Source: Candidatus Curtissbacteria bacterium RIFCSPLOWO2_02_41_11 (lineage in GTDB: Bacteria > Patescibacteriota > Microgenomatia > Curtissbacterales > GWA2-41-24). Taken from it: 64,000 nt of DNA. The notes under the pieces were generated by a model. The model was not told the origin of the DNA. It saw only the letters and a program-made list of their open reading frames with translations, and made no database searches. Shown piece by piece: positions 7,671 through 51,621 of the stretch. Position 1 is the first letter of the stretch. The number at the start of each line of letters is the position of its first letter. The stretch lies in the NCBI GenBank assembly GCA_001775055.1, contig MFBU01000007.1:1683-65682 (forward strand). Reading direction: 5' to 3'. The position numbers and the translations under genes are program-made.

Positions 7671-7770
7671 TTCTTCCTAAATCACCTCCCTTGCCCTCCC
7701 GACTTGTCCGCCAAAACTTTAGTGTCGGCGGAAGCTTTATGCGAAGGAGGGTTTTTCCATAACCAATCAC

Positions 7771-7821: not shown

Positions 7822-8689
7822 ATCCAAATACCTCAATTTTCGCCTCAACCACTGCCGCCACCGCCAAAATTACATCCGGCACAAGCTTATACATTGCGTA
7901 TTCATCAGGATTCTCAGCCATTTTCTCACTCAAAGCATCTTTATATTCCTGCCGCAGTTCCGTATTGACATTAATTTTGACAATTTTGCCAACCTCAATC
8001 GCGCGCCTGACTTGATCAGCCGATATCCCAGATCCGCCATGCAGCGAAAGAAAAGTATTAGGCAGTGACTTGCGAATTCTTGCCAAAAGGTCAAGATCTA
8101 AATCCGGTTGAGTTGGGAAAACTCCATGGACATTGCCAAAAACCGCAGCCATTATATCGACACCGGTTTGAGATACAAACCGCGCAGCCTTCAGCGGATC
8201 AGTATATGATTTATGAAGTGCCTCAAAATCAATCTCCTCATTATGAACCACACTTGAACCGGCAATTTTGTCAATCTCTCCTTCGACAAGAACCTGCCTG
8301 CCGGCAGGCAGGGCCTTTGCATGCGCCGCTTCAATTACTTTTTTGCAACCACTGATGTTCTCTGAAAACTCAAGTTCTGAACCATCAAAGTGGATTAGGT
8401 CGAAACTTGACTGATCAATTGCTTGCATACAATCTTCAACCTTTTTTGCATGGTCCAGATTTAAAAGAATCGGAATGCCGTATTCCTCTCTCGCGTTGAC
8501 TACCAGACTGACAATATTTTTTAATCCAAAATATTCCACCTCACCTGACGAAAATTCCACCATCACCGGCGATTTTTTGCGCTGAGCCGCCACACAAATC
8601 GCCTTAAAAATATCTAAATTATCCGCATTAAACGCCCCGATAGCAAAACCATCTTGTTGAGCTTTCTCAAACCATTCTCTTACAGTCAT
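7805..8689 (-). CDS. fba: class II fructose-bisphosphate aldolase
   Basis: 294 aa; 'FAIGAFNADNLD' N-terminus and 'HGGSG' zinc-site region typical of class II ketose-bisphosphate aldolases; carries palindrome 'cctgcctgccggcaggcagg' in-frame ('LPAGRQ'). Confidence 0.85.
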   Translation of the reverse strand: MTVREWFEKAQQDGFAIGAFNADNLDIFKAICVAAQRKKSPVMVEFSSGEVEYFGLKNIVSLVVNAREEYGIPILLNLDHAKKVEDCMQAIDQSSFDLIHFDGSELEFSENISGCKKVIEAAHAKALPAGRQVLVEGEIDKIAGSSVVHNEEIDFEALHKSYTDPLKAARFVSQTGVDIMAAVFGNVHGVFPTQPDLDLDLLARIRKSLPNTFLSLHGGSGISADQVRRAIEVGKIVKINVNTELRQEYKDALSEKMAENPDEYAMYKLVPDVILAVAAVVEAKIEVFGSAGRV

Positions 8690-9121: not shown

Positions 9122-9601
9122 TTATCCTTCATTTTCGAACTTGGATATTTTGTCAACCCTTCTCTGATGGCGACCACTTTCAAACTTGGTATCAAGCCAG
9201 ACAGAAACTGCCTTTTTGGCATCATCTGCCGATAGAAACCTAGCACCAAGTGACAAGATATTTGCATCATTATGCTCGCGAGCAAGTCGAGGAATCGAAG
9301 ATCCTGAGCTTGTCGAAGGACCTCCATAATAAACCGCTGCTCTTATCCCTTTTACTTTATTGGCAGCAATTGCCTCCCCTTGACCGGAACCGCCAATGAC
9401 TATCCCCACATCATCGGGTTTACCCTGAGCGTGGCTTTCCGCCACGCGAAGGGCGCAAGGGATTACAAAATCTGGATAATCGTCATCTTCATTAAGCTCA
9501 AATGCCCCCATGTCCTCAACCTCCAAACCTTTGATCTTAAGATACTGGATCAACTGTTTTTTAAGATAAAATCCAGCATGATCGGCCGCAATGTAAATCA
9601 T
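9122..9601 (-). CDS. rpiB: ribose-5-phosphate isomerase B
   Basis: 159 aa; 'IYIAADHAGF', 'GIVIGGSGQGEAIAANK', 'LAREHNDANILSLGARF' RpiB/LacAB signatures; small repeat-like insert (~9270-9325, 'PSTSSGSSIP'). Confidence 0.85.
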   Translation of the reverse strand: MIYIAADHAGFYLKKQLIQYLKIKGLEVEDMGAFELNEDDDYPDFVIPCALRVAESHAQGKPDDVGIVIGGSGQGEAIAANKVKGIRAAVYYGGPSTSSGSSIPRLAREHNDANILSLGARFLSADDAKKAVSVWLDTKFESGRHQRRVDKISKFENEG

Positions 9602-17742: not shown

Positions 17743-18635
17743 ATCGCTTGATAACCTTTATTTTCTATTTCCCTTGCAAGCGATAATCTTCCCGATTTAA
17801 CAATCTTCCCCTCCACCATCACATGCACAAAATCAGGTTTTAAGTATTTGAGGATTCGAGCGTAATGGGTTATTAGAAGGACGGATGAACGCGGATTATT
17901 AAATCTAAACTGATTAATCGCGGATGAGACAAGCTTAAGTCCATCAACATCAAGTCCAGAGTCAATTTCGTCCAAGATCACCAATTTCGGCGAAAGGGCC
18001 ATCATTTGCAAAATTTCACTTCTTTTTTTCTCTCCCCCGGAAAAACCTTCATTTAAAGAGCGCCGCAGGAAATCATCAGAAAGTCTTAAAGACGAAGCGT
18101 ATTCAAGTAGTTCCTGACGAAATGCTGAAAGACTGCGGGTGGCAGTGGCGGAGGGGGTCCCATCGAGCGCCCGCAGACCAACCAAGGATTGTTGATTGCG
18201 TTTCGAATTAGACTTGGTCGAGGACGTCGGATGGGACGAGCCGCTGACAGGACCCGAAATCGATTGCTTTGCTCTTCTTAAAACATTAAACACGCTGACC
18301 CCCGGCACCTCTACTGGATGCTGAAATCCCAAAAAAATCCCCAATTTTGCCCGTTTGTCCGGAGTTAATTTTGTAATATCCTCTCCGTTAAATGTTATCG
18401 GTGAACTGCTTGCCCCTCGAAGCTTTAGCGGAGTGGGGTCAATTGTGAATTGCGGGGCACCCGCAATTACCTGTGCCAGCGTGCTTTTGCCACTGCCATT
18501 TGGCCCCATCAACACATGAAGTTCGCCAGCCTTGACCTCAAGGTCAATCCCTTTTAAGATCTCCTGCTTGCCCGCCATAACTTTAGTGGAGGTGGAACCT
18601 TTGATTGAAACTTTTAAATTGTTAATTTTAAGCAC
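17733..18635 (-). CDS. sufC: Fe-S cluster assembly ATPase SufC (with ~128-bp in-frame repeat insertion)
   Basis: Walker A 'GPNGSGKST', ABC signature 'GFSGGEKKR', Walker B 'LVILDEIDSGLD', H-loop 'ITHY'; likely GTG start at 18635 preceded by AAGGAG (ORF track extends to 18695). Confidence 0.9.
   Translation of the reverse strand: MLKINNLKVSIKGSTSTKVMAGKQEILKGIDLEVKAGELHVLMGPNGSGKSTLAQVIAGAPQFTIDPTPLKLRGASSSPITFNGEDITKLTPDKRAKLGIFLGFQHPVEVPGVSVFNVLRRAKQSISGPVSGSSHPTSSTKSNSKRNQQSLVGLRALDGTPSATATRSLSAFRQELLEYASSLRLSDDFLRRSLNEGFSGGEKKRSEILQMMALSPKLVILDEIDSGLDVDGLKLVSSAINQFRFNNPRSSVLLITHYARILKYLKPDFVHVMVEGKIVKSGRLSLAREIENKGYQAINF
18133..18260. repeat. dispersed element inserted in-frame in sufC (same family and frame as 27346-27484 in tkt)
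   Basis: shares 'tgcgggtggcagtgg...gagg' start and 'ctgacaggacccgaaat' end with tkt copy; encodes 'ISGPVSGSSHPTSS...SATATRS'. Confidence 0.7.
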
Positions 18636-21075: not shown

Positions 21076-22032
21076 TTACTCTTGACTTTCTATCCAACGT
21101 TCCGCCTCAAGGGCTGCCTGGCAACCATAGCCGGCAGCGGTCACTGCCTGGCGATAGTGGTAATCATGAACATCTCCGGCCACAAAAACACCTTCAACCG
21201 AAGTCATCATATTGTACTGATTTCGGATCTCGGATTTCGGATTTCGGATTTTTTTAACATATCCCTTCTCATCTAGCTCAATTTGCCCGCGAAAAATATC
21301 AGTCATCGGATGATGTCCGATGGCCACAAACATACCGTCAATAGCCAGCTCTCTGGCCGATCCGTCCTGCTTATTCTTAATCTTGATCCCCTCCACTTTG
21401 TCTTTCCCCAAAACATCCATAACCTCGCTATTTAATATAAAGGAAATCTTCTTGTTGGCGCGTGCCCGATCAAGCATGATTTTGGAAGCACGGAATTGTT
21501 CTCTCCTATGAACAATGGATACATCAGTTGCAAACTTAGTTAAAGTCAGCGCTTCCTCCATGGCGCTGTCTCCGCCACCAACCACTACTACCTTTTTGTC
21601 TTTAAAAAACCAAGCATCGCAGGGAGCACAGGAAGAAACCCCGCGGCCAATTAATTTTTGCTCATTTGGCAAACCTAACCAATTAGTTTCGGCACCGGTG
21701 GCAATAATGACAGCTCTTGCCTGATAAACTTTTTGGCCGACAGAGACTTTAAATGGCTTGGCCTTAAAGTCAACTTTGGAAACATCCTCATTCAAAATTT
21801 CGGCGCCGAATCTCTCTGCTTGTTTACGAAAAACAGTCATCAGCTCGGGTCCCAATATCCCATCAACAAAACCGGGATAATTTTCAACCTCGGTTGTCAG
21901 CATTAACTGCCCTCCCCATTTGACACCTGCCAAAACCAATGGTTTCAAATCCGCGCGCGCAGTGTACAAAGCAGCCGTTAATCCTGCCGGACCAGAGCCG
22001 ATGATGACGACATTGCGGATATCATTACTCAT
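21076..22032 (-). CDS. trxB: thioredoxin-disulfide reductase
   Basis: 318 aa; 'VVIIGSGPAGLTAALY', redox-active 'CAPCD', NADPH site 'VVVVGGGDSAMEEA'. Confidence 0.9.
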   Translation of the reverse strand: MSNDIRNVVIIGSGPAGLTAALYTARADLKPLVLAGVKWGGQLMLTTEVENYPGFVDGILGPELMTVFRKQAERFGAEILNEDVSKVDFKAKPFKVSVGQKVYQARAVIIATGAETNWLGLPNEQKLIGRGVSSCAPCDAWFFKDKKVVVVGGGDSAMEEALTLTKFATDVSIVHRREQFRASKIMLDRARANKKISFILNSEVMDVLGKDKVEGIKIKNKQDGSARELAIDGMFVAIGHHPMTDIFRGQIELDEKGYVKKIRNPKSEIRNQYNMMTSVEGVFVAGDVHDYHYRQAVTAAGYGCQAALEAERWIESQE

Positions 22033-22036
22033 AGTG

Positions 22037-22075
22037 ATTAAAAGGTATCACAGGTATCACAGGTATCACAAGTAT
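22037..22075. repeat. tandem 9-mer repeat (ggtatcaca)x4 immediately upstream of trxB start
   Basis: 'ggtatcacaggtatcacaggtatcacaagtatcacaagc'; related 'gtatcacgggtatcacgag' occurs inside tkt at 27318-27337. Confidence 0.7.
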
Positions 22076-22262
22076 CACAAGCGAAAAAATTTAGTGACAA
22101 AAATAAAATTGAAAATTATTCTAGAATTTCATTACCCGAATTTTTACCGAACCCGAATAATTGACGAAAAAAATAAAATTGATCACAATTTATACCCCGA
22201 TTTTAGCCTTTTTCGGGTAAAAATAAATCACTATTGACAGCTTTTAGTGCCCCTGACATAGA

Positions 22263-24139: not shown

Positions 24140-24215
24140 CTACCTCCACCTCGGGGGAGTCAAAGCCTGCCTACCGGCAGGCAGGTCCACCCCCAAGGTG
24201 ATTGCATATATGTAG
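24140..24215. repeat. GC-rich palindromic element ('cacctcggggg...gcctgcctaccggcaggcagg...cccccaaggtg')
   Basis: nested inverted repeats; the 'cctgcc..ggcagg' palindrome recurs at 8293, 35496, 51116. Confidence 0.5.
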
Positions 24216-25841: not shown

Positions 25842-27881
25842 TTACCCCAAAATTTCCCTAACTTTATTAATAATAGAAGAAGCAGAAATTCCTTCCCAGT
25901 CAAGTAATTGATCGGGTTTCCCCGACATCGGCAATTTGCCAACCGCCAGCTTATAAATTTTAACCTTTCCACTTTGGGCAAAAACATTTAAAACCGCATC
26001 GCCAAGACCCCCGTCAAAATAGTGATCCTCAACCGTAATAATCAAATTATTGGTTTGTTGGGCAGATTTTTTGAGGGTTTTCTCATCAATCGGTTTGATA
26101 CTGTAGGCATCAATTACTCTGACTCTAATTCCTTTTTTGGCAAGTTCATCGCAAGCTTTTATCGTCTCAATTAGAGTCACCCCACAGGCAACAATTGTCA
26201 GCTTATCATCTTTACTTGATCTGACAACTTTACTGCCACCGATTTTAAACTCTTCTTTCTGATCATAAATGACAGGTGTTGCTGGTCTGTTTGTGCGAAT
26301 GTAGAAAATGCCCTGATTTTCGGCAGCCAGCGCAACTAGCCGGACACAGGAAACAGCATCAGCCGGATATAAAATCGTACTGCCGAAAATTGAGCGAAAC
26401 ATTGCCAGATCCTCAAGCCCCATTTGTGAAGGGCCGTCTTCGCCGATTGAAACACCGGCATGCGAACCCACAAATTTGATATTGGCACCAGAAATCGCAC
26501 TTATTCTAATTTGATCGGCTGCCCTACTTAAAAAAGCCGCGAAAGTCGAGACAAAAGGAATTTTGCCGCGTTTAGAAAGACCAAGTGCCACACCAACCAT
26601 ATTTTGCTCGGCAATAAACATTTCAAAAAACCGCTCTGGGTATTTTTCTTTAAAAAGTTCAGAATATGTTGAATTCTTGACTTCCGCATCAAGACTGACT
26701 ATACGTGGATCAATCTCGCCAAGTGCAACTAATGCTTCCCCGTAGGCTTTGCGAGTCGGAACCATCTCGCCTAATTGATAATTAACTTTTAATTTTTGAT
26801 TTGTAATTTTGAATTTTGAATTTCCCGACCTCGTCTCGACTCGGTCGAGGACGGGTTGAATTTTGAATTTTTCTGTAGTTGGTTTCTTTATCTCGCTCTT
26901 GATCTCAAAATCAATCTCACCTAATTCTTTTACTGCCTCTTTAAATTGTTCTTCGGATAACGCCTTTCCATGCCAACCTTCCTTATCCTCCAAAAAGCTA
27001 ACACCTTTACCTTTAATTGTTTTAGCAATAATCATCTGGGGTTGACTCGATCCATCTGGCAACAAATCAAGAGTCCGCACAATAGACCTTAGATCGTGTC
27101 CATCTACAAGATGAGTTTGCCAACCAAAAGCCTCAATGCGCTCTTTATATTTATCAACGTCCCAACCAAGCATCGTCTGACCGCTTTGCCCAAGTCTGTT
27201 AATATCAATAATGCCCACCAAATTACCCAGTTTATAATAAGAAGCAAGCTCAACAGCTTCCCAAACTGATCCTTCGCTAGTCTCAGAATCACCCATCAGA
27301 ACGTACACTTTTGGAAGAGTATCACGGGTATCACGAGCTTGAGAATTGCGGGTGGCAGTGGTAGGAGGGTTCCCGACCCCACTTCGCTTCGCTTCGAGGG
27401 GCACAGCAGCGCTATCATCGCTGGCGGGCTTGCCCACCGAAGCTTTAGCGGAGGCGGGAGGGAAACCACTGACAGGACCCGAAATTCTCATCGCCAGTGC
27501 CATCCCAAGACCAATCGAAAGCCCCTGCCCTAAAGAACCGGTTGCCACATCCACATATTTAAAACGGGGAGTCGGATGCCCTTCAAGCGGACTTTCAAAC
27601 TTCCGATAGCCATCTAATTCTTTCTCTGTCAATACTCCAGCTGCAGCATAGAGTGCATAAAGCAGAGGTGAAGCATGGCCTTTGGAAAAAATCACCCTAT
27701 CATTAGCCGAATTTTGGGGATTTTCAAGATCAAATCGCAAGTGATTAAAGAAAAGGGCAACCATCAGATCGGTTGCCGAAAGCGAAGAGGTTGGATGTCC
27801 CGAGCCGGCCTTGGTAGTCATGCGCAAAATATAATAACGAACTAACTTCGCCAGCTTCTCAAGCTTAGCAATATCTGCCAT
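25842..27881 (-). CDS. tkt: transketolase (with two in-frame repeat insertions)
   Basis: 679 aa; ThDP motif 'GDSETSEGSVWEA', 'SHAGVSIGEDGPSQMGLEDLAMFR', N-terminal 'AGSGHPTSSLSATDL'. Confidence 0.85.
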   Translation of the reverse strand: MADIAKLEKLAKLVRYYILRMTTKAGSGHPTSSLSATDLMVALFFNHLRFDLENPQNSANDRVIFSKGHASPLLYALYAAAGVLTEKELDGYRKFESPLEGHPTPRFKYVDVATGSLGQGLSIGLGMALAMRISGPVSGFPPASAKASVGKPASDDSAAVPLEAKRSGVGNPPTTATRNSQARDTRDTLPKVYVLMGDSETSEGSVWEAVELASYYKLGNLVGIIDINRLGQSGQTMLGWDVDKYKERIEAFGWQTHLVDGHDLRSIVRTLDLLPDGSSQPQMIIAKTIKGKGVSFLEDKEGWHGKALSEEQFKEAVKELGEIDFEIKSEIKKPTTEKFKIQPVLDRVETRSGNSKFKITNQKLKVNYQLGEMVPTRKAYGEALVALGEIDPRIVSLDAEVKNSTYSELFKEKYPERFFEMFIAEQNMVGVALGLSKRGKIPFVSTFAAFLSRAADQIRISAISGANIKFVGSHAGVSIGEDGPSQMGLEDLAMFRSIFGSTILYPADAVSCVRLVALAAENQGIFYIRTNRPATPVIYDQKEEFKIGGSKVVRSSKDDKLTIVACGVTLIETIKACDELAKKGIRVRVIDAYSIKPIDEKTLKKSAQQTNNLIITVEDHYFDGGLGDAVLNVFAQSGKVKIYKLAVGKLPMSGKPDQLLDWEGISASSIINKVREILG
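26809..26870. repeat. hairpin element with 15-bp flanking direct repeats, in-frame in tkt
   Basis: 'ttgaattttgaattt' + 'cccgacctcgtctcgactcggtcgaggacggg' + 'ttgaattttgaattt' (TSD-like). Confidence 0.6.
27346..27484. repeat. dispersed element inserted in-frame in tkt (same family/frame as 18133-18260 in sufC)
   Basis: encodes 'ISGPVSGFPPASAKASVGKPASDDSAAVPLEAKRSGVGNPPTTATRNSQ'; also contains 'gaagctttagcgga' shared with 18415 and 7737/44199. Confidence 0.7.
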
Positions 27882-29591: not shown

Positions 29592-30935
29592 ATGTTTTCT
29601 TTAGCCCAAAATTATTTAACTCGTGGGTTTTGGGGTGATGAGGCCTGGACTTCCTTGATTTCCCAACTTCCCTATTTGCAAATGTTAAAGACCACTGCTG
29701 CCGACTTTCATCCTCCAGCCTACTACACAATCGTCGAGATCGTTTATAAATTTTTGCCGCCAACAGAAATAGTCACCCGTTCGATTTCGATCGTCTTCTA
29801 TTTGTTAACTATATTTCTTGTATATAAACTGGCCTCAGAAGTTAAAGGCCCCACCTCCGCTGAAGCTTCGGTGGGCAAGAAACTTTTTGGCATAATTTCG
29901 GCGCTGGTGGTTGCCGCCAATCCGATCTTTTTTATCTACGCTTTTGAAGCCCGAAATTACACCATGTTTGCCTTTGCGGCGACCGGATCCATTTATTTTC
30001 TAATTAAACTTTCTGAAAATTTTAGCTGGCGGGCTGCAGTTGGCTTTGTACTTTTTTCAACTTTGGGAATCTACACCCATTACTACATGTTTTTTATTTT
30101 GGCAGCCCAAGGTCTTTATTTAATTCTTTTTGACCGCAAGATTCTTTTAAAAGTAATCGGTCTTTACATAGTGGTAGCAATTTTATACTTGCCCTGGATT
30201 CCCTTTTTGGCAGGACAAGTTAAGTCAGCTGGTCAAAATTATTGGATCGGAGCAATCGACCAAAGAACTCATTTTGAAGCAATTTTGCGCATTTTTGGTG
30301 GAGAGTTTAAAAATGCTTTTCGACCATTTTTGTTTAGCCTGTCAGTAGCACTTTTGGTCATAGGGTTGATCCAACATGCACTGCGCCACAAGTTTGAGAA
30401 GCCGTATCTTCTAATTTGGCTCTGGGCAACTGTGCCCTTTATTTTGGCAAGCCTGCCTGGCTTGGCCATTGACGGATTAAAATTGCCTTTTCGCCCGATT
30501 TTTTTCTGGCGCTATCTAATCGGCGCGGCAGTTCCTCTTGCCATAGTGATGGTTCATACGAGTGAGAAATTGCCGAAGTATCTGTTTGTAATCTCAATTG
30601 CGGCAATAATCGCATTAAGTATTATCATTGACGCTTTAACTTTTAGCAGATATCCTTACACTTTTCGCCAGGCTTATCAGCAAAAAATATTGCCGAAAAT
30701 TTCCTCCCAAGATAAAATTGTGACGGTTCTGCCATCTTTTGCCGAAGTTGCCTATTATAGGCAGCGATTTGGGATTAAAAACGACTTGATTGTTCTACCG
30801 GAAGGCTTGGTGCAGTTTTCCGGCAAAAGCCTGCTTGACGCCTATGTCGAAAATCAAATAGTGACAATTGACGAAGCACCATCCGGAAATTATTTTGAAC
30901 TAAGACCGGGACCAAGTTTAGTGATTAGAGACTAG
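29592..30935 (+). CDS. GT39/ArnT-PMT-like membrane glycosyltransferase
   Basis: 447 aa, ~11 TM; N-terminal 'GFWGDEAWTS' + periplasmic loops typical of GT-C family 39 enzymes. Confidence 0.55.
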   Translation: MFSLAQNYLTRGFWGDEAWTSLISQLPYLQMLKTTAADFHPPAYYTIVEIVYKFLPPTEIVTRSISIVFYLLTIFLVYKLASEVKGPTSAEASVGKKLFGIISALVVAANPIFFIYAFEARNYTMFAFAATGSIYFLIKLSENFSWRAAVGFVLFSTLGIYTHYYMFFILAAQGLYLILFDRKILLKVIGLYIVVAILYLPWIPFLAGQVKSAGQNYWIGAIDQRTHFEAILRIFGGEFKNAFRPFLFSLSVALLVIGLIQHALRHKFEKPYLLIWLWATVPFILASLPGLAIDGLKLPFRPIFFWRYLIGAAVPLAIVMVHTSEKLPKYLFVISIAAIIALSIIIDALTFSRYPYTFRQAYQQKILPKISSQDKIVTVLPSFAEVAYYRQRFGIKNDLIVLPEGLVQFSGKSLLDAYVENQIVTIDEAPSGNYFELRPGPSLVIRD

Positions 30936-35464: not shown

Positions 35465-36290
35465 GCGTTAATCGGTTACGAAGCCAGTTTCGTTTACCTG
35501 CCTGCCAAGCAGGCAGGGCGGTTACGTTTTACGTCTGACGCCTCACGATACGGGCGTCGTCACCCTAACCGTCTGACCTTAACCCGCGCTCCTTGCTATC
35601 TCTACCTCTTTTTCAATATCAACGGCAAAAACCCAGGAAAAGTTGGCCGCCACCACAAAAGCTATAATGGCAATCTGCGCATAGGTTACTCCCAGAATCG
35701 TCGAGATAACTAAAAAAGCCACAGAAAGCCAAAGGAAAACGAGCCAAATGGCCGCCTGATGATAAAGGTGGTAACTTGGAGCAACTAAGCTTTCCAAATT
35801 GAGTCGAACTAGTCTGGCATGAAGAGTTGGATGGATGTGGCTTTCATGAAAAAAGTGGGCACGCACCAAAACTATAATTGTGCCCAGGGCGGCTATTGAA
35901 AACATCGCTAAATTCGAATAATTTTCGGCAATAGTGTAATTGGCCAAATCGGTAAAGTGAACAGATGGCAACACCTTAAAAATTTGGCCATTGACAAGAG
36001 TTATGGGCATTTTTAAAAAATAGATGACCAGAAAAAGCCCGAGCATTTTACCAAAGATCAAGGCTGCAGCCGGCATGATCGCCTCATCAATTAACTTGGC
36101 TAGCGATTTGGTGATCATACTCTAAATATAGCAGATTCCGGAAAGCAGATGGTTACGGTGACGATACCCGTTTCGTGAGGCGTTTTGGGTCTTACGTGTT
36201 TATTGGTTTTTACGATTAACGTAACCGATAAACGATACGAGCATCGTGACCCTTCAGCTCTAAACGAAACCCAGGCAAACTGACTTCGCC
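35465..36290. mobile_element. candidate non-autonomous cassette: ~100-bp imperfect inverted repeats flanking one membrane-protein gene
   Basis: left arm 35531-35575 'acgtctgacgcctcacgatacgggcgtcgtcaccctaaccgtctg' is reverse-complement-similar to right arm 36146-36197; outer segments also match ('cgaag(c/t)cagttt', 'cggttacg'). Confidence 0.5.
35579..36118 (-). CDS. hypothetical 5-TM membrane protein (cargo of IR-flanked cassette)
   Basis: 179 aa; no known domain. Confidence 0.35.
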   Translation of the reverse strand: MITKSLAKLIDEAIMPAAALIFGKMLGLFLVIYFLKMPITLVNGQIFKVLPSVHFTDLANYTIAENYSNLAMFSIAALGTIIVLVRAHFFHESHIHPTLHARLVRLNLESLVAPSYHLYHQAAIWLVFLWLSVAFLVISTILGVTYAQIAIIAFVVAANFSWVFAVDIEKEVEIARSAG

Positions 36291-36315: not shown

Positions 36316-37152
36316 TCATGGTAATTTTTTAGCATACTGGCTGGAAATCCAGCCTTGTTTATCCTCAAATTTAACCTTGACCCAATCTTTCGTCTCCTGA
36401 ATAATTTCCAGCTCGTCTCCCGTCTTGACCCTGCCAATTTCCGGTGAGTCGAGTGAGGCTTCTTTGCGCACTCTCAAAAACCCTGTCGGAGTAGCTAAAA
36501 TCCGCACTTTTTGAACTGATAGTGCAGGAACCGGTGAAGGTTGAACTTGGGGATTTTTGGCTATTTCCGAGGCCAAAGTGACATCGGCAACTACCTGATA
36601 TTTATTTGAGGCTTTAACAGCAAACTCACGATTAATATAACCAGCCTTAGTAAGGGTAATTTTATGTTCGCCTTCTTCAAGTTTTTCGACTAAATATGGA
36701 GTTTTGCCGACTAACTTACCGTCCATAGTAATCTCCACTTCACTCGGCATTGATGAAACAAAAAGACCCCTTTTACCACTTTCAAGCCAAAGAGTCTCAC
36801 CAGACTCGGCCAAAAAATTATTGGCAAGCTCCCGGTTAACGACCGTTAAAGTTCCACCGCTCAAAGTTATTTTTTCGACAAAACTAGCCTCACCAGCCGT
36901 AATTTTTAGCAAATATTCGCCAACTTTAAGCTGATCGGAAAAAAACGGGGTTTTGCCAAGGTGCTTACCATCAAGAAAAACCGAAGCCTCGGGAATAGAA
37001 GTAATCTGAAGCGCTGCCGGTTTGGTCGTACCGATGGCACTGCAACCGAAAAAAATAGTAGCTAGTAGCAGGTAGCTGGTAGCTGGTAGCAAGACTTTTA
37101 GGACTTTAGCTTTAGTCGTTAAATGTTTAGCTTTTGACGATATGAAAGGCAT
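36316..37152 (-). CDS. lipoprotein with PEGA domains and C-terminal SH3b domain
   Basis: PEGA-like 'ITSIPEASVFLDGKHLGKTP' and 'EITMDGKLVGKTPY'; C-terminal 'GDELEIIQETKDWVKVKFEDKQGWI' SH3b-like; start set at internal Met so the ORF does not run over repeat copy 3. Confidence 0.5.
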   Translation of the reverse strand: MPFISSKAKHLTTKAKVLKVLLPATSYLLLATIFFGCSAIGTTKPAALQITSIPEASVFLDGKHLGKTPFFSDQLKVGEYLLKITAGEASFVEKITLSGGTLTVVNRELANNFLAESGETLWLESGKRGLFVSSMPSEVEITMDGKLVGKTPYLVEKLEEGEHKITLTKAGYINREFAVKASNKYQVVADVTLASEIAKNPQVQPSPVPALSVQKVRILATPTGFLRVRKEASLDSPEIGRVKTGDELEIIQETKDWVKVKFEDKQGWISSQYAKKLP

Positions 37153-44139: not shown

Positions 44140-44225
44140 CTTCGCCAAGGCTACGGAGGGTAAACCCCCTTCGCCACAACTATTGGAGGGCTCGCTCTCC
44201 GAAGCTTTATGCGAAGGAGAGCCCG
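44140..44225. repeat. pyrG-leader hairpin repeats ('ccctcc...ggaggg', 'gctctccgaagctttatgcgaaggagagc')
   Basis: 18-mer 'gaagctttatgcgaagga' identical to 7737-7754. Confidence 0.55.
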
Positions 44226-45680: not shown

Positions 45681-46564
45681 TTAGGAATAACTGCATTATT
45701 TTTTAGTTTAAGCTTAATCAGCCGCTTTTGATACTCCTCCATCACCCACTCTCCAGTATTTTGCGGGTGGAAGAAAAGTTGGTGTTTGCCGATTTTTTCA
45801 GTGGTGATTTTGGGGTGCATATACCAGAGTTGAAAGTTTTTGAGAAAACTTTCAACAGTTCGTAGTAAGTAGTTAGTAGTTGGTAGTTTCTTTTTCTCTG
45901 ATCTATGATCTACAACCCCAAAATTAACTTGCCAATTCGGAAGGAATTTATATATCCATTTATTAGCATCGATAAATCGTCGGTAAGTCTTGTCCCGATC
46001 CCAAATTGGTTTCATTTGACAAATTTCGTGGGCAAGATAGAGATTTTGGGGACTGATTTTAAGGTCTGATTCGTCGATAAGGACATTAAGGCAAGCTCGA
46101 TCTGCAACTTTTTGACCCTTGACATCTCTTTTAAACGGCACGAGCAAAATGTTTGCCACAAAACGGGTTGTCCAGAGAGTATTTTGGGAGGTTATTAAAA
46201 CCAAATCAATATCATCATTTTTGTGACTGTTTTGCATGGCCAAAGCACCTGATATCGCCATCAACTTTAAAGTCGGAATGATTTTCAGAACTTTAGCAAA
46301 AAAAAGGGCTTTTTTGAATTTGAACTTTGAATATTTTTGCCTTTGCTTGCGCAGGCTGACGATTTGTATTCGACCCTTGAGAAAATAATATTGGCCTTTT
46401 TGGCCAATTTTTGATGACTTCGTCAAAATCAATAATTCTTTGGCGACTGCATCGAGTTTGCTCCTCTTCCCTATTAAATATTGATGGACTTCTTGAACAG
46501 TCAGTGGATAATCGAAAATGTCATGGTAGGCGAAAGTGGCTAGGATTGACTGCGACAAGGTCAT
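45677..46564 (-). CDS. Pol-beta-superfamily nucleotidyltransferase (GS-x10-DxD motif), function unknown
   Basis: 295 aa; 'ISGALAMQNSHKNDDIDLVLI' (G[SA]...DhD) and downstream 'LNVLIDESD'; carries family-C repeat in-frame (45857-45895). Confidence 0.5.
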   Translation of the reverse strand: MTLSQSILATFAYHDIFDYPLTVQEVHQYLIGKRSKLDAVAKELLILTKSSKIGQKGQYYFLKGRIQIVSLRKQRQKYSKFKFKKALFFAKVLKIIPTLKLMAISGALAMQNSHKNDDIDLVLITSQNTLWTTRFVANILLVPFKRDVKGQKVADRACLNVLIDESDLKISPQNLYLAHEICQMKPIWDRDKTYRRFIDANKWIYKFLPNWQVNFGVVDHRSEKKKLPTTNYLLRTVESFLKNFQLWYMHPKITTEKIGKHQLFFHPQNTGEWVMEEYQKRLIKLKLKNNAVIPN

Positions 46565-50427: not shown

Positions 50428-51621
50428 ATGATAATTTTAGGGATTGAATCCACCTGTGACGAGACCGGAGTAGCAATTGTTGAGTGGGATCCTTCTCAAG
50501 ACTCGGGACTAAAGGTTTTAGCTAATGTCATCGCCTCCTCGGTTGAATTGCATAAAAAGTATAGCGGTGTTGTTCCGGAGGTTGCAGCACGCGAGCAAGT
50601 AAGAGTAATTATCCCCGTGGTCAATGAGGCTTTGACAAGAGCATTCGGATCAATTCGCAGTAATAATTCGTACAAATTTGGATGCCAAATTGATGCCATT
50701 GCAGTTGCTCACGGTCCGGGACTAGTCGGCTCACTTTTGATCGGTGTCGAAACTGCCAAGGCTCTAGCTTTAGTCTGGAATAAGCCATTGATCCCGATTA
50801 ATCACCTGATGGGTCATGTCTATGCCAATTGGCTTCAACCAGTTGGTAGTATTGAGTCGGTAGCTGGTAGTAAAAATAAAAAAACTAAAAACTACAAACT
50901 ACGAACTCCAGACTTTCCTTTAGTCGCCCTAGTCGTCTCCGGTGGACATACGGATTTAATATTGATGACCGATCATAACAAATATCGATGGCTTGGCGGA
51001 ACTTTGGATGATGCAGCCGGCGAAGCGTTCGATAAAGTGGCTCGAATTTTGGGATTAGGATATCCTGGAGGGCCGGAGATTGAGCGAGCAGCTCAACAAC
51101 TGACAACTGACAATGGGCCTGCCTTACCGGCAGGCAGGCAATTGACATTTAAATTACCTCGGCCGCTGATTAACTCGACCAGCTTTGATTTCTCATTCTC
51201 GGGGCTTAAGACTGCCGTTGTTCATTATTCTAGTCAAATGTCAGATACTCGCCTCGCTTCGCTTGCGAAGCGGGTCAAAGGTCCCGGCGCCGTCAAAACT
51301 TTAGCAGGCAGGCAAGTGTCTGCGATAGCGCATGAGTTTCAGCAGGCAGTATGCGATATTCTAGTAACAAAAACCTTAAGAGCCGCCAAAAAATATCAAG
51401 TGGAATCAATTGTTGTCGGTGGAGGAGTAGCAGCAAATCAACGGTTGCGTTCACTGTTAACGGTTAATGGATCACGGTTGGGAATTCCTGTTTTCTTTCC
51501 AGAGAAAAATCTTTCAACTGACAATGGGGCAATGATTGCCGCAGCAGCGTTCTTTCATCCGTATCAAATTAATCCTCTGAAACTTTCTGCAGTTCCCGGC
51601 CTTTATTTCGATCAAACTTGA
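50428..51621 (+). CDS. tsaD: tRNA N6-adenosine threonylcarbamoyltransferase TsaD (with three repeat-derived in-frame insertions)
   Basis: 397 aa (~55 aa longer than typical); 'ILGIESTCDETGVAIV', 'VAHGPGLVGSLLIGV', 'VSGGHT', 'GGGVAANQRLR'. Confidence 0.85.
   Translation: MIILGIESTCDETGVAIVEWDPSQDSGLKVLANVIASSVELHKKYSGVVPEVAAREQVRVIIPVVNEALTRAFGSIRSNNSYKFGCQIDAIAVAHGPGLVGSLLIGVETAKALALVWNKPLIPINHLMGHVYANWLQPVGSIESVAGSKNKKTKNYKLRTPDFPLVALVVSGGHTDLILMTDHNKYRWLGGTLDDAAGEAFDKVARILGLGYPGGPEIERAAQQLTTDNGPALPAGRQLTFKLPRPLINSTSFDFSFSGLKTAVVHYSSQMSDTRLASLAKRVKGPGAVKTLAGRQVSAIAHEFQQAVCDILVTKTLRAAKKYQVESIVVGGGVAANQRLRSLLTVNGSRLGIPVFFPEKNLSTDNGAMIAAAAFFHPYQINPLKLSAVPGLYFDQT

Follow-up and report, generated by a model that had tools for sequence, protein, structure and literature searches.

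A 33-nt palindromic repeat set in heptanucleotide arrays and read through in the transketolase gene of a Candidatus Curtissbacteria genome

The transketolase gene (tkt) considered here lies on the minus strand of a 64-kb window (the whole stretch of DNA analysed, 64,000 nucleotides) from a genome of Candidatus Curtissbacteria, which belongs to the Microgenomates within the Candidate Phyla Radiation (CPR). In the list of open reading frames (ORFs) the gene is ORF 25842..27881, with a product of 679 aa, and it contains, in frame, a GC-rich hairpin that we call H1. The feature is probably one copy of a dispersed, non-autonomous palindromic element of 33 nt that is found in Microgenomates-type CPR bacteria. 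The element would land in T-rich heptanucleotide arrays (TTGAAYT), at the junction between units, with constant polarity and without target-site duplication (TSD). In tkt it would have landed in a heptamer array that was already part of the unconstrained linker between the N-terminal pyrophosphate (PP) and pyrimidine (Pyr) domains of the enzyme. With a unit of 11 codons and a stop-free hairpin, it would be passively translated as a disordered loop (PVLDRVETRSG), and the "15-bp repeats" next to it would be the array on each side.

The hairpin in tkt and its copies elsewhere

Two exact copies (0 mismatch) of ttgaattttgaattt, and no more, were found in the window, at 26809-26823 and 26856-26870 on the plus strand; each consists of two heptamer units and a T. 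Between them, at 26824-26855, lies cccgacctcgtctcgactcggtcgaggacggg, a 32-nt GC-rich imperfect palindrome. As judged from palindrome and fold, its plus strand (CCCGACCTCGTCTCGACTCGGTCGAGGACGGG) has arms of 12 nt and a loop of 8 nt. A preliminary description of this DNA had reported a 32-nt hairpin bracketed by 15-bp direct repeats and read through in frame; all of this proved correct, and the ORF confirms the readthrough. The arms are complementary at 10 of 12 positions, the other two pairs, 5/28 and 11/22, being A.A and T.T mismatches. By convention we write H1 on the strand with T-rich flanks, which is antisense to tkt. The sense RNA of the hairpin folds into a stem of 4+5(+1) bp with two 1x1 mismatches and a minimum free energy of -16.6 kcal/mol (z = -2.55 relative to shuffles).

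Translation of tkt runs across the segment in frame (...TTEKFKIQPVLDRVETRSGNSKFKITNQ...), and the product around H1 reads ...TTEKFKIQ-PVLDRVETRSG-NSKFKITNQKLKVNYQLGE.... The inserted unit would be H1 plus one T/A, that is, 33 nt at 26823..26855 on the minus strand, corresponding to Tkt codons 343-353 (PVLDRVETRSG); the extra base could equally well be 26856. Excising the 33 nt from the window leaves an unbroken AAATTCA array that encodes EKFKIQNSKFKITNQ, and on this model the empty tkt junction would be ...AAATTCAAAATTCAA/AATTCAAAATTC.... Direct reading of the hairpin shows no TA or TG dinucleotide on either strand, and consequently none of the six H1 frames has a stop codon.

Tkt is a single-chain transketolase of the human type, with the Pfam domains Transketolase_N, Transket_pyr and Transketolase_C. 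It matches human TKT structures at E = 1e-176 and is 100% identical to a protein from Candidatus Curtissbacteria RIFCSPHIGHO2_12_41_11. In its AlphaFold2 model (pTM 0.83 overall), the predicted local distance difference test (pLDDT) falls below 50 at three segments only: 136-187 (the first insertion), 337-362 and 476-484. Residues 337-362 are the H1 peptide and its heptamer-coded flanks, and because of this low pLDDT the extra residues are predicted to form a disordered surface linker between the PP and Pyr domains. On the present evidence H1 does nothing specific for transketolase.

No further copy of the full 32-mer is present in the window at up to 3 mismatches, and its relatives were found by scanning other genomes and metagenomes. 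The scan of GTDB genomes used a degenerate palindrome and returned mostly random high-GC noise, with a handful of useful CPR matches among those listed. These include an exact 32-mer in a divergent intergenic region of Curtissbacteria RIFOXYA1_FULL_41_14 (L063) and a 1-mismatch copy between two genes of another CPR metagenome-assembled genome (MAG; L098). The metagenome scan, which used a 22-nt core with 21 specified bases, yielded 48 stretches with H1. In total there are at least 52 matches in at least 33 distinct contexts from CPR genomes and metagenomes, reaching a maximum density of three copies on a single 508-kb contig; none was found in viral contigs. The preliminary description had named uniqueness of the hairpin as an argument against a mobile insertion, and identical copies in 33 contexts answer it. 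All ten bases beyond the required core are also conserved, bar a 1-mismatch CCCA variant confined to one locus family (L133, L134, L144, L150) and a single copy with 3 mismatches (L128). A fuzzy search of 396 kb for decayed copies (2-8 substitutions) found none apart from L128, in too little sequence to be conclusive.

H1 lies inside long ORFs in 23 of the 33 contexts, or 19 independent sites when four orthologous pairs are counted once. Its hosts are transketolase, ATP-dependent DNA ligase, leucyl-tRNA synthetase (LeuRS, at two different sites), PurL, UvrD, a radical-SAM (MiaB-like) enzyme, a Mur ligase, 6-phosphogluconate dehydrogenase (6PGD), GT1/GT4 and GT2 glycosyltransferases, DUF72, a class-I tRNA synthetase and an EF-G-like protein. 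These assignments come from a Pfam scan of all hosts but two (a 2071-aa ORF in L160 and the orthologous one in L162), in which a single host gave no match. When the A-rich strand is the sense strand, H1 is read as PVLDRVETRSG in 9 cases, PSSTESRRGRE in 7 and TRPRPSRDEVG in 4, while nested copies are translated from the opposite strand. Since it is read in all frames, H1 is a DNA-level element rather than a protein module. In two orthologous GT2 genes (L149 3103-3885; L152 1303-2205) conserved anchors are 126 nt apart in both, and H1 is 57/37 nt from them in one ortholog and 50/44 nt in the other; this displacement by exactly one heptamer (7 nt) is why the two species translate it in different frames. 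The arrays are stop-free on the A-rich strand only, and the TGA on their T-rich strand accounts for the fixed orientation of H1 inside genes. A host gene stays open because the unit is 11 codons long, the hairpin is stop-free and the array is stop-free on its A-rich strand.

Heptanucleotide arrays and the mode of insertion

In the window H1 is flanked on the left by an array at 26787..26823 (plus strand; unit TTTGAAT/TTGAATT, 5.3 degenerating copies), whose sense strand encodes NSKFKITNQKLKVN, and on the right by one at 26856..26871 (plus strand; TTGAATT, 2.3 copies), whose sense strand encodes EKFKIQ, both identified by Tandem Repeats Finder. The right array is at offset 1 relative to the left, with 7/7 matches, and the 15-nt repeat amounts to 2.1 units of a TTGAATT tandem array interrupted by the hairpin. 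T-rich heptamer arrays with the consensus unit TTGAAYT are present on both sides of H1 in 28 of the 33 contexts, the unit itself being locus-specific (TTGAACT, TTGGAAT, TTGACTT, TGGAGTT, TTGATTT, TTGTTTC and others), and their polarity relative to the asymmetric hairpin is constant in these 28. Self-match at period 7 reaches 0.63 and 0.58 in the two flanks, compared with 0.28 in controls. The left 7 nt match the right flank at offset 1 (5-7/7) in 28/28 non-nested contexts, and T is invariant at -1 and +1 of H1. The remaining 5 of the 33 copies are nested within other GC-rich palindromes; a copy nested in the loop of another hairpin adds 32+1 nt, with only a duplicated T and without the 8-nt repeat.

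Arrays of period 7 are more than 20-fold enriched in the window (21 compared with 0.95 in shuffles), which also holds 6 arrays of period 14 and 1 of period 21. They thus resemble STRR-like heptanucleotide arrays in being tandem 7-nt units far commoner than chance. About half of those of period 7 are inside ORFs, where the sense strand is always A-rich. Examples, with many different units, are at 1051-1080, 21219-21251, 37058-37090, 45857-45888, 50882-50907 and 51096-51113.

How H1 enters such an array can be read from two LeuRS genes, each of which has the hairpin at a site that is empty in the other. At the second site the empty gene reads ...gaaaagttaa/aagttaaaagt... and the filled one ...caaaagttaa/CCCGTCCTCGACCGAGTCGAGACGAGGTCGGGA/aagttaaaagt.... 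The difference, filled minus empty, is exactly 33 nt (11 codons) inside an existing AAGTTAA AAGTTAA array, and the duplication is at most 1 nt (one A/T). About 20 other Microgenomates LeuRS orthologs have heptamer-coded peptides at the site and no H1 (EVKSEKLKVKS, ENSKLETRNSK, EIRNSKFEIRN). Because these array-bearing orthologs lack the hairpin, the array came first and the hairpin later.

Among LeuRS proteins of the Levybacteria type (P0160-P0165, P0171, P0184, P0203; proteins only), FKIQNSKFKI stands directly before the conserved VFTTRPDT motif and has the period of the peptide encoded by the AAATTCA array of the window. To judge from these sequences, heptamer arrays may also occupy variable loops of other essential enzymes.

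The preliminary description had taken the feature for a small mobile insertion with a TSD footprint. The insertion half of that proposal agrees with the occurrence of H1 as translated, repeated DNA in many contexts. The TSD half has to be abandoned: the flanks are a pre-existing heptamer array, which the LeuRS without the hairpin already possesses, and the filled gene is longer by only 33 nt. A 15-bp duplication plus the 32-nt hairpin would come to 47 nt and, not being divisible by 3, would shift the frame; hairpin plus 1 nt gives 33 nt. The 8-nt repeat seen throughout the family (15 nt in the window) arises from period 7 plus the extra T and is not made on insertion.

The comparison with tkt orthologs that the preliminary description had proposed gives a concordant picture. 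Among 32 Curtissbacteria-type transketolases, the PP-Pyr linker is hypervariable and rich in peptides translated from short repeats, and PVLDRVETRSG is present only in P0002 and in the 90% cluster to which the window's own protein belongs. Every member of that cluster carries H1, so there is no empty allele there. The closest variants are P0002 with the hairpin and P0003 without it. The closest hairpin-less orthologs with DNA (L001, L002) hold another heptamer array at the same linker site (AAGTATT..., GATACTA AATACAA); both are 36 nt shorter, and their linkers are non-alignable, so they provide no clean empty site. The relatives P0002, P0003, P0005 and P0131 (alignment A1) look like mosaic alleles, in which segments identical to the window protein switch to another haplotype exactly at both insertion sites. 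This pattern suggests recombination, or chimeric assembly, at these repeats.

H1 also has sister hairpins. A second subfamily, CCCGCCCTCGGCAAGCCGAAGGCGAGGCCGGG and its complement, has a stem in common with H1 (CCCGNCCTCGNC...GNCGAGGNCGGG; CCCGCCCTCGGC..GGCGAGGCCGGG), and the mismatches at 5/28 and 11/22 are kept. Among the genome-scan matches listed, H2 is identical in three CPR MAGs (L066, L058, L007) and has a loop variant in L087; H3, the opposite orientation of the sister hairpin, is present in L031 and L109. H2 adjoins heptamer arrays (GAAATTA x4 and others) in three of its four copies (L066, L058, L087), and at those in L066 and L087 the junction follows the "unit + 1 nt" rule of H1. The loop of H2 houses four H1 copies, and the H1-in-H2 composite is itself found in four contexts.

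A possible mechanism and its rivals

We infer that H1 moves as a folded single strand, by means of a hairpin-recognising enzyme of the HUH/Y1 type such as those of IS200/IS605 or of repetitive extragenic palindromic (REP) sequences and their RAYT partners. Such a mechanism would explain why no duplication is made, why the element is strand-specific and why its mismatches are conserved. With IS200/IS605-like elements H1 has in common the absence of duplication, a fixed orientation, a position next to a short specific target (for H1, an invariant T at -1 and +1) and a hairpin with mismatches (for H1, at 5/28 and 11/22, as in H2 and H3), which is a resemblance and not proof of the enzyme. A length of 3n, freedom from stops and the location of arrays in unconstrained loops and linkers would let H1 be tolerated in genes.

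Several points weigh against this interpretation. No mobilising gene was found, and no systematic search for one was made. The choice of a tandem heptamer junction as target is unexplained. The LeuRS pair is only 49% identical overall, although about 90% locally; no relatives of the filled LeuRS above 62% identity were found, and no closely related pair (>95% identity) with presence and absence at one site was recovered. The apparent invariance of H1 is partly ascertainment, because the metagenome search demanded 21 exact core bases. In addition, orthologous copies differ at 0-1 of 32 nt amid flanking coding DNA that is 61-88% identical. This near-identity, which a purely neutral old insertion does not explain, needs repeated re-insertion, homogenisation or selection at the nucleotide level.

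Selection of that kind is the substance of the best-surviving alternative, a functional nucleic-acid signal whose hairpin is kept by DNA or RNA selection, mobile or not. Candidates are a protein binding site, an mRNA structure that pauses ribosomes at domain boundaries, and an antisense terminator (a GC hairpin followed by TTGAATTTTGAATTT on the plus strand). Besides the contrast between copies and flanks, the independence of conservation from reading frame fits this explanation, as do the retention of the two mismatches as mismatches in the second subfamily and a terminator-like site called at 26836-26859 on the plus strand. We nevertheless consider it unlikely. Recent repeated insertion explains the identity equally well; the copy number is low, at about 2-3 per 300-500 kb contig; the host genes are unrelated and have H1 at no common position; and most orthologs of each host lack it. 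The terminator scan of the tkt region is not above chance (2 found, 3.2 expected), and H1 does not look like an intrinsic terminator, most copies being in ORFs and having the tail TTGAATTTT instead of a U run. Rfam 15 covariance models searched over 26600-27100 with E up to 10 gave no relevant match, so that no Rfam family speaks for an RNA, and the invariance of the sequence precludes support from covariation.

A role for any dedicated enzyme could be dispensed with if ectopic recombination, gene conversion or template switching had copied H1 from one heptamer array into another that resembles it. H1 always sits in arrays of the TTGAAYT theme, in the same register and without duplication, and the tkt alleles look recombinant at the insertion sites. 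The locus-specific units, however, often share only 4-5/7 bases (TGGAGTT, TTGTTTC and TAGTCTT compared with TTGAACT), and because the units next to H1 differ in this way among loci, they offer too little homology. Heptamer homology is absent altogether where H1 is nested in the loop of a GC-rich hairpin, and identical copies occur in genomes whose LeuRS are only 49% identical. Spread of this kind is distinctly improbable.

Still harder to sustain is a classical MITE (for miniature inverted-repeat transposable element), in which a DDE transposase would have inserted a 32-bp palindrome made of two 12-bp terminal inverted repeats (TIRs) and duplicated 15 bp (or 8 bp). The complementarity of the arms agrees with it, as does an 8-nt direct repeat next to the hairpin, which is perfect in 12 contexts, has no more than 1 mismatch in 22 of the 28 non-nested ones and extends to 15 nt in the window. 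That repeat, however, is automatic from period 7 and one extra T, and the nested copy, with its duplicated T alone, lacks it. Both heptamer units are already there in the empty LeuRS site, and what the filled one has in addition is 33 nt rather than 40 or 47 nt. Either of the latter lengths would break the frame, whereas 23 copies lie in open frames. Two transposase binding sites only 8 bp apart, as they would be in H1, leave too little room for a double-stranded synaptic complex. In about 0.4 Mb of CPR DNA there is no longer element with H1 ends, and there are no solo arms.

A local one-off origin, either as an in-situ replication-error palindrome or as the relic spacer or terminator of fused split tktA/tktB genes, is scarcely credible: the site is exactly at the N-terminal (PP)/Pyr domain junction, where split transketolases divide, but an identical 32-mer occurs in 32 other contexts in unrelated genes and genomes (the dispersal on which the relic was rejected), close and distant single-chain orthologs have the linker without the hairpin, and the human-type TKT linker is of similar length.

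Known systems, neighbouring repeats and implications

In behaviour, the system closest to H1 is the Rickettsia palindromic element (RPE). RPEs are palindromic repeats of about 100-150 bp that are inserted in frame in many housekeeping genes of small-genome Rickettsia and are described as encoding a conserved peptide (Ogata et al. 2000, 2002, as summarized in PMC10969869). Both are palindromic DNA translated in unrelated housekeeping enzymes as an extra surface peptide that leaves the host protein intact, and H1 likewise is in frame in many unrelated genes (23/33 contexts). In size, peptide and genus the two part ways: H1 is 33 nt long, its hosts are CPR bacteria, and, because it is read in three frames (9/7/4) as well as from the opposite strand, it has no conserved peptide. 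Unlike the RPEs, H1 has heptanucleotide arrays as its specific setting and does not vary between genomes whose LeuRS are about 50% identical. Given the sizes, sequence relatedness between them is implausible.

In form, the closest system is that of the yeast mitochondrial GC clusters (GC42), GC-rich hairpins of 30-45 nt in AT-rich DNA that are mostly intergenic and have AG/ACT repeats of 2-3 nt (PMC4478555). Like H1, these clusters and the fungal and sponge mitochondrial hairpins have many identical copies, sporadic distribution, nesting and no known transposase (PMC4478555). H1 differs from GC clusters in being bacterial, mostly intragenic, set in period-7 arrays and associated with at most 1 nt of duplication. 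With REP/RAYT and IS200/IS605 systems it has in common short imperfect palindromes with conserved mismatches, strand specificity and a duplication-free position near a short target. REP sequences, or REPINs, with their RAYTs are extragenic and high-copy; they bear a GTAG head and are usually arranged in inverted doublets close to a RAYT gene. H1, in contrast, is intragenic in 70% of contexts, occurs as singletons and has no GTAG at either end.

The heptanucleotide repeats described previously, the cyanobacterial STRR and the TAACTGA repeats of Beggiatoaceae, are abundant, come in many different units per genome and are described as intergenic and untranslated (PMC4679880), and an excess of heptameric repeats in bacteria has been reported (PMC4692102). 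The arrays of the window differ in that about half are in ORFs, translated and always A-rich on the sense strand, and in that they are landing sites for a hairpin. Some units in the window (ACAACTG, GAAACTG) recall TAACTGA. Bacterial MITEs such as Correia, ERIC, BOX and RUP are small non-autonomous repeats that are sometimes intragenic and form in-frame fusions (PMC10969869). They measure 50-500 bp and have TIRs and a TSD; at 33 nt, H1 has TIR-like arms (10/12), although these arms are the entire element, and it has no TSD.

H1 is accordingly neither a MITE, in the absence of a TSD, nor a REP, nor, by its size and its several frames, an RPE. On the best-supported reading its nearest counterparts are Rickettsia palindromic elements and the GC clusters of yeast mitochondria. 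The literature searched contained no account of elements like H1 from CPR or Patescibacteria.

Other small repeats accompany H1 in the window. The preliminary description had noted a gtcgaggacg core in sufC and near 9283 in rpiB. In sufC the core does recur once, at 18217-18226 rather than 18213-18222, and the match extends to 15/16 nt: the segment gacttggtcgaggacg (18211..18226, plus strand) is 15/16 identical to the loop and right arm of H1 (26838-26853). It is without the left arm, forms part of another, larger translated element and has a reading frame different from that in tkt (TSSTKS); its T at loop position 18 is also the variant of the full H1 copies L098, L132, L152 and L154. A sufC-type element with an SSTK peptide is present in another CPR LeuRS (P0147). 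The supposed rpiB copy dissolves into gtcgagga, an 8/10 match and a chance 8-mer. The larger GC-rich translated element has TIR-like ends (TGCGGGTGGCAGTGG... / ...CTGACAGGACCCGAAAT) and occupies 27346-27482 in tkt and 18124-18262 in sufC; it is read as ISGPVSG...GNPPTTATR and, in its sufC copy, contains the 15/16 half-H1 match; in Tkt, residues 136-187 have a pLDDT below 50. These peptides are also found at other sites in other CPR transketolases and LeuRS (P0147, P0152, P0190).

A family of small hairpins, GCCCACCGAAGCTTTAGCGGAGGCGGG, occurs at 27429-27458, 29850-29879, 18567-18602, 18402-18427, 7703-7738 and 44184-44209; its translation is SAKASVGK in tkt but SAEASVGK in ORF 29592-30935, and its gene-relative orientation is the same in the two. 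The palindrome CCTGCCTGCC-GGCAGGCAGG recurs at 8293-8315, 24166-24188, about 35497-35517 and 51117-51140, with one copy nested in a larger palindrome (24147-24200) and one directly following a heptamer array inside ORF 50428-51621. Nine-base tandem repeats are also present, namely AGGTATCAC x4 and gtatcacgg/gtatcacga coding RDTRDT (22043-22079, 27318-27341), and RDT/RGT peptides recur at both insertion sites of other CPR transketolases.

The genomes of CPR bacteria are tiny, and their housekeeping proteins are unusually "decorated". H1 traces part of this decoration to DNA elements that enter essential genes without inactivating them, and it offers a clean case of insertion at a fixed register without target duplication. 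Such elements inflate the apparent divergence of proteins, create breakpoints for recombination and assembly in metagenome bins, and can serve as strain markers. If the hairpin is recognised by a specific enzyme, it would point to a new mobile-element system in an uncultivated radiation. More tentatively, H1 may form, together with its sister hairpins, an active CPR system that crosses lineages, moves as single strands and uses heptanucleotide arrays as dedicated landing pads. Were this so, the 7-nt units (1 mod 3), with all frames open on one strand, would act as frame buffers that let genes absorb insertions. Behind the perfect conservation between genomes whose housekeeping proteins are about 50% identical there would then be a recognising enzyme yet to be identified or an exapted nucleic-acid function. 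It would also amount to a new way for selfish DNA to remodel essential proteins in minimal genomes.

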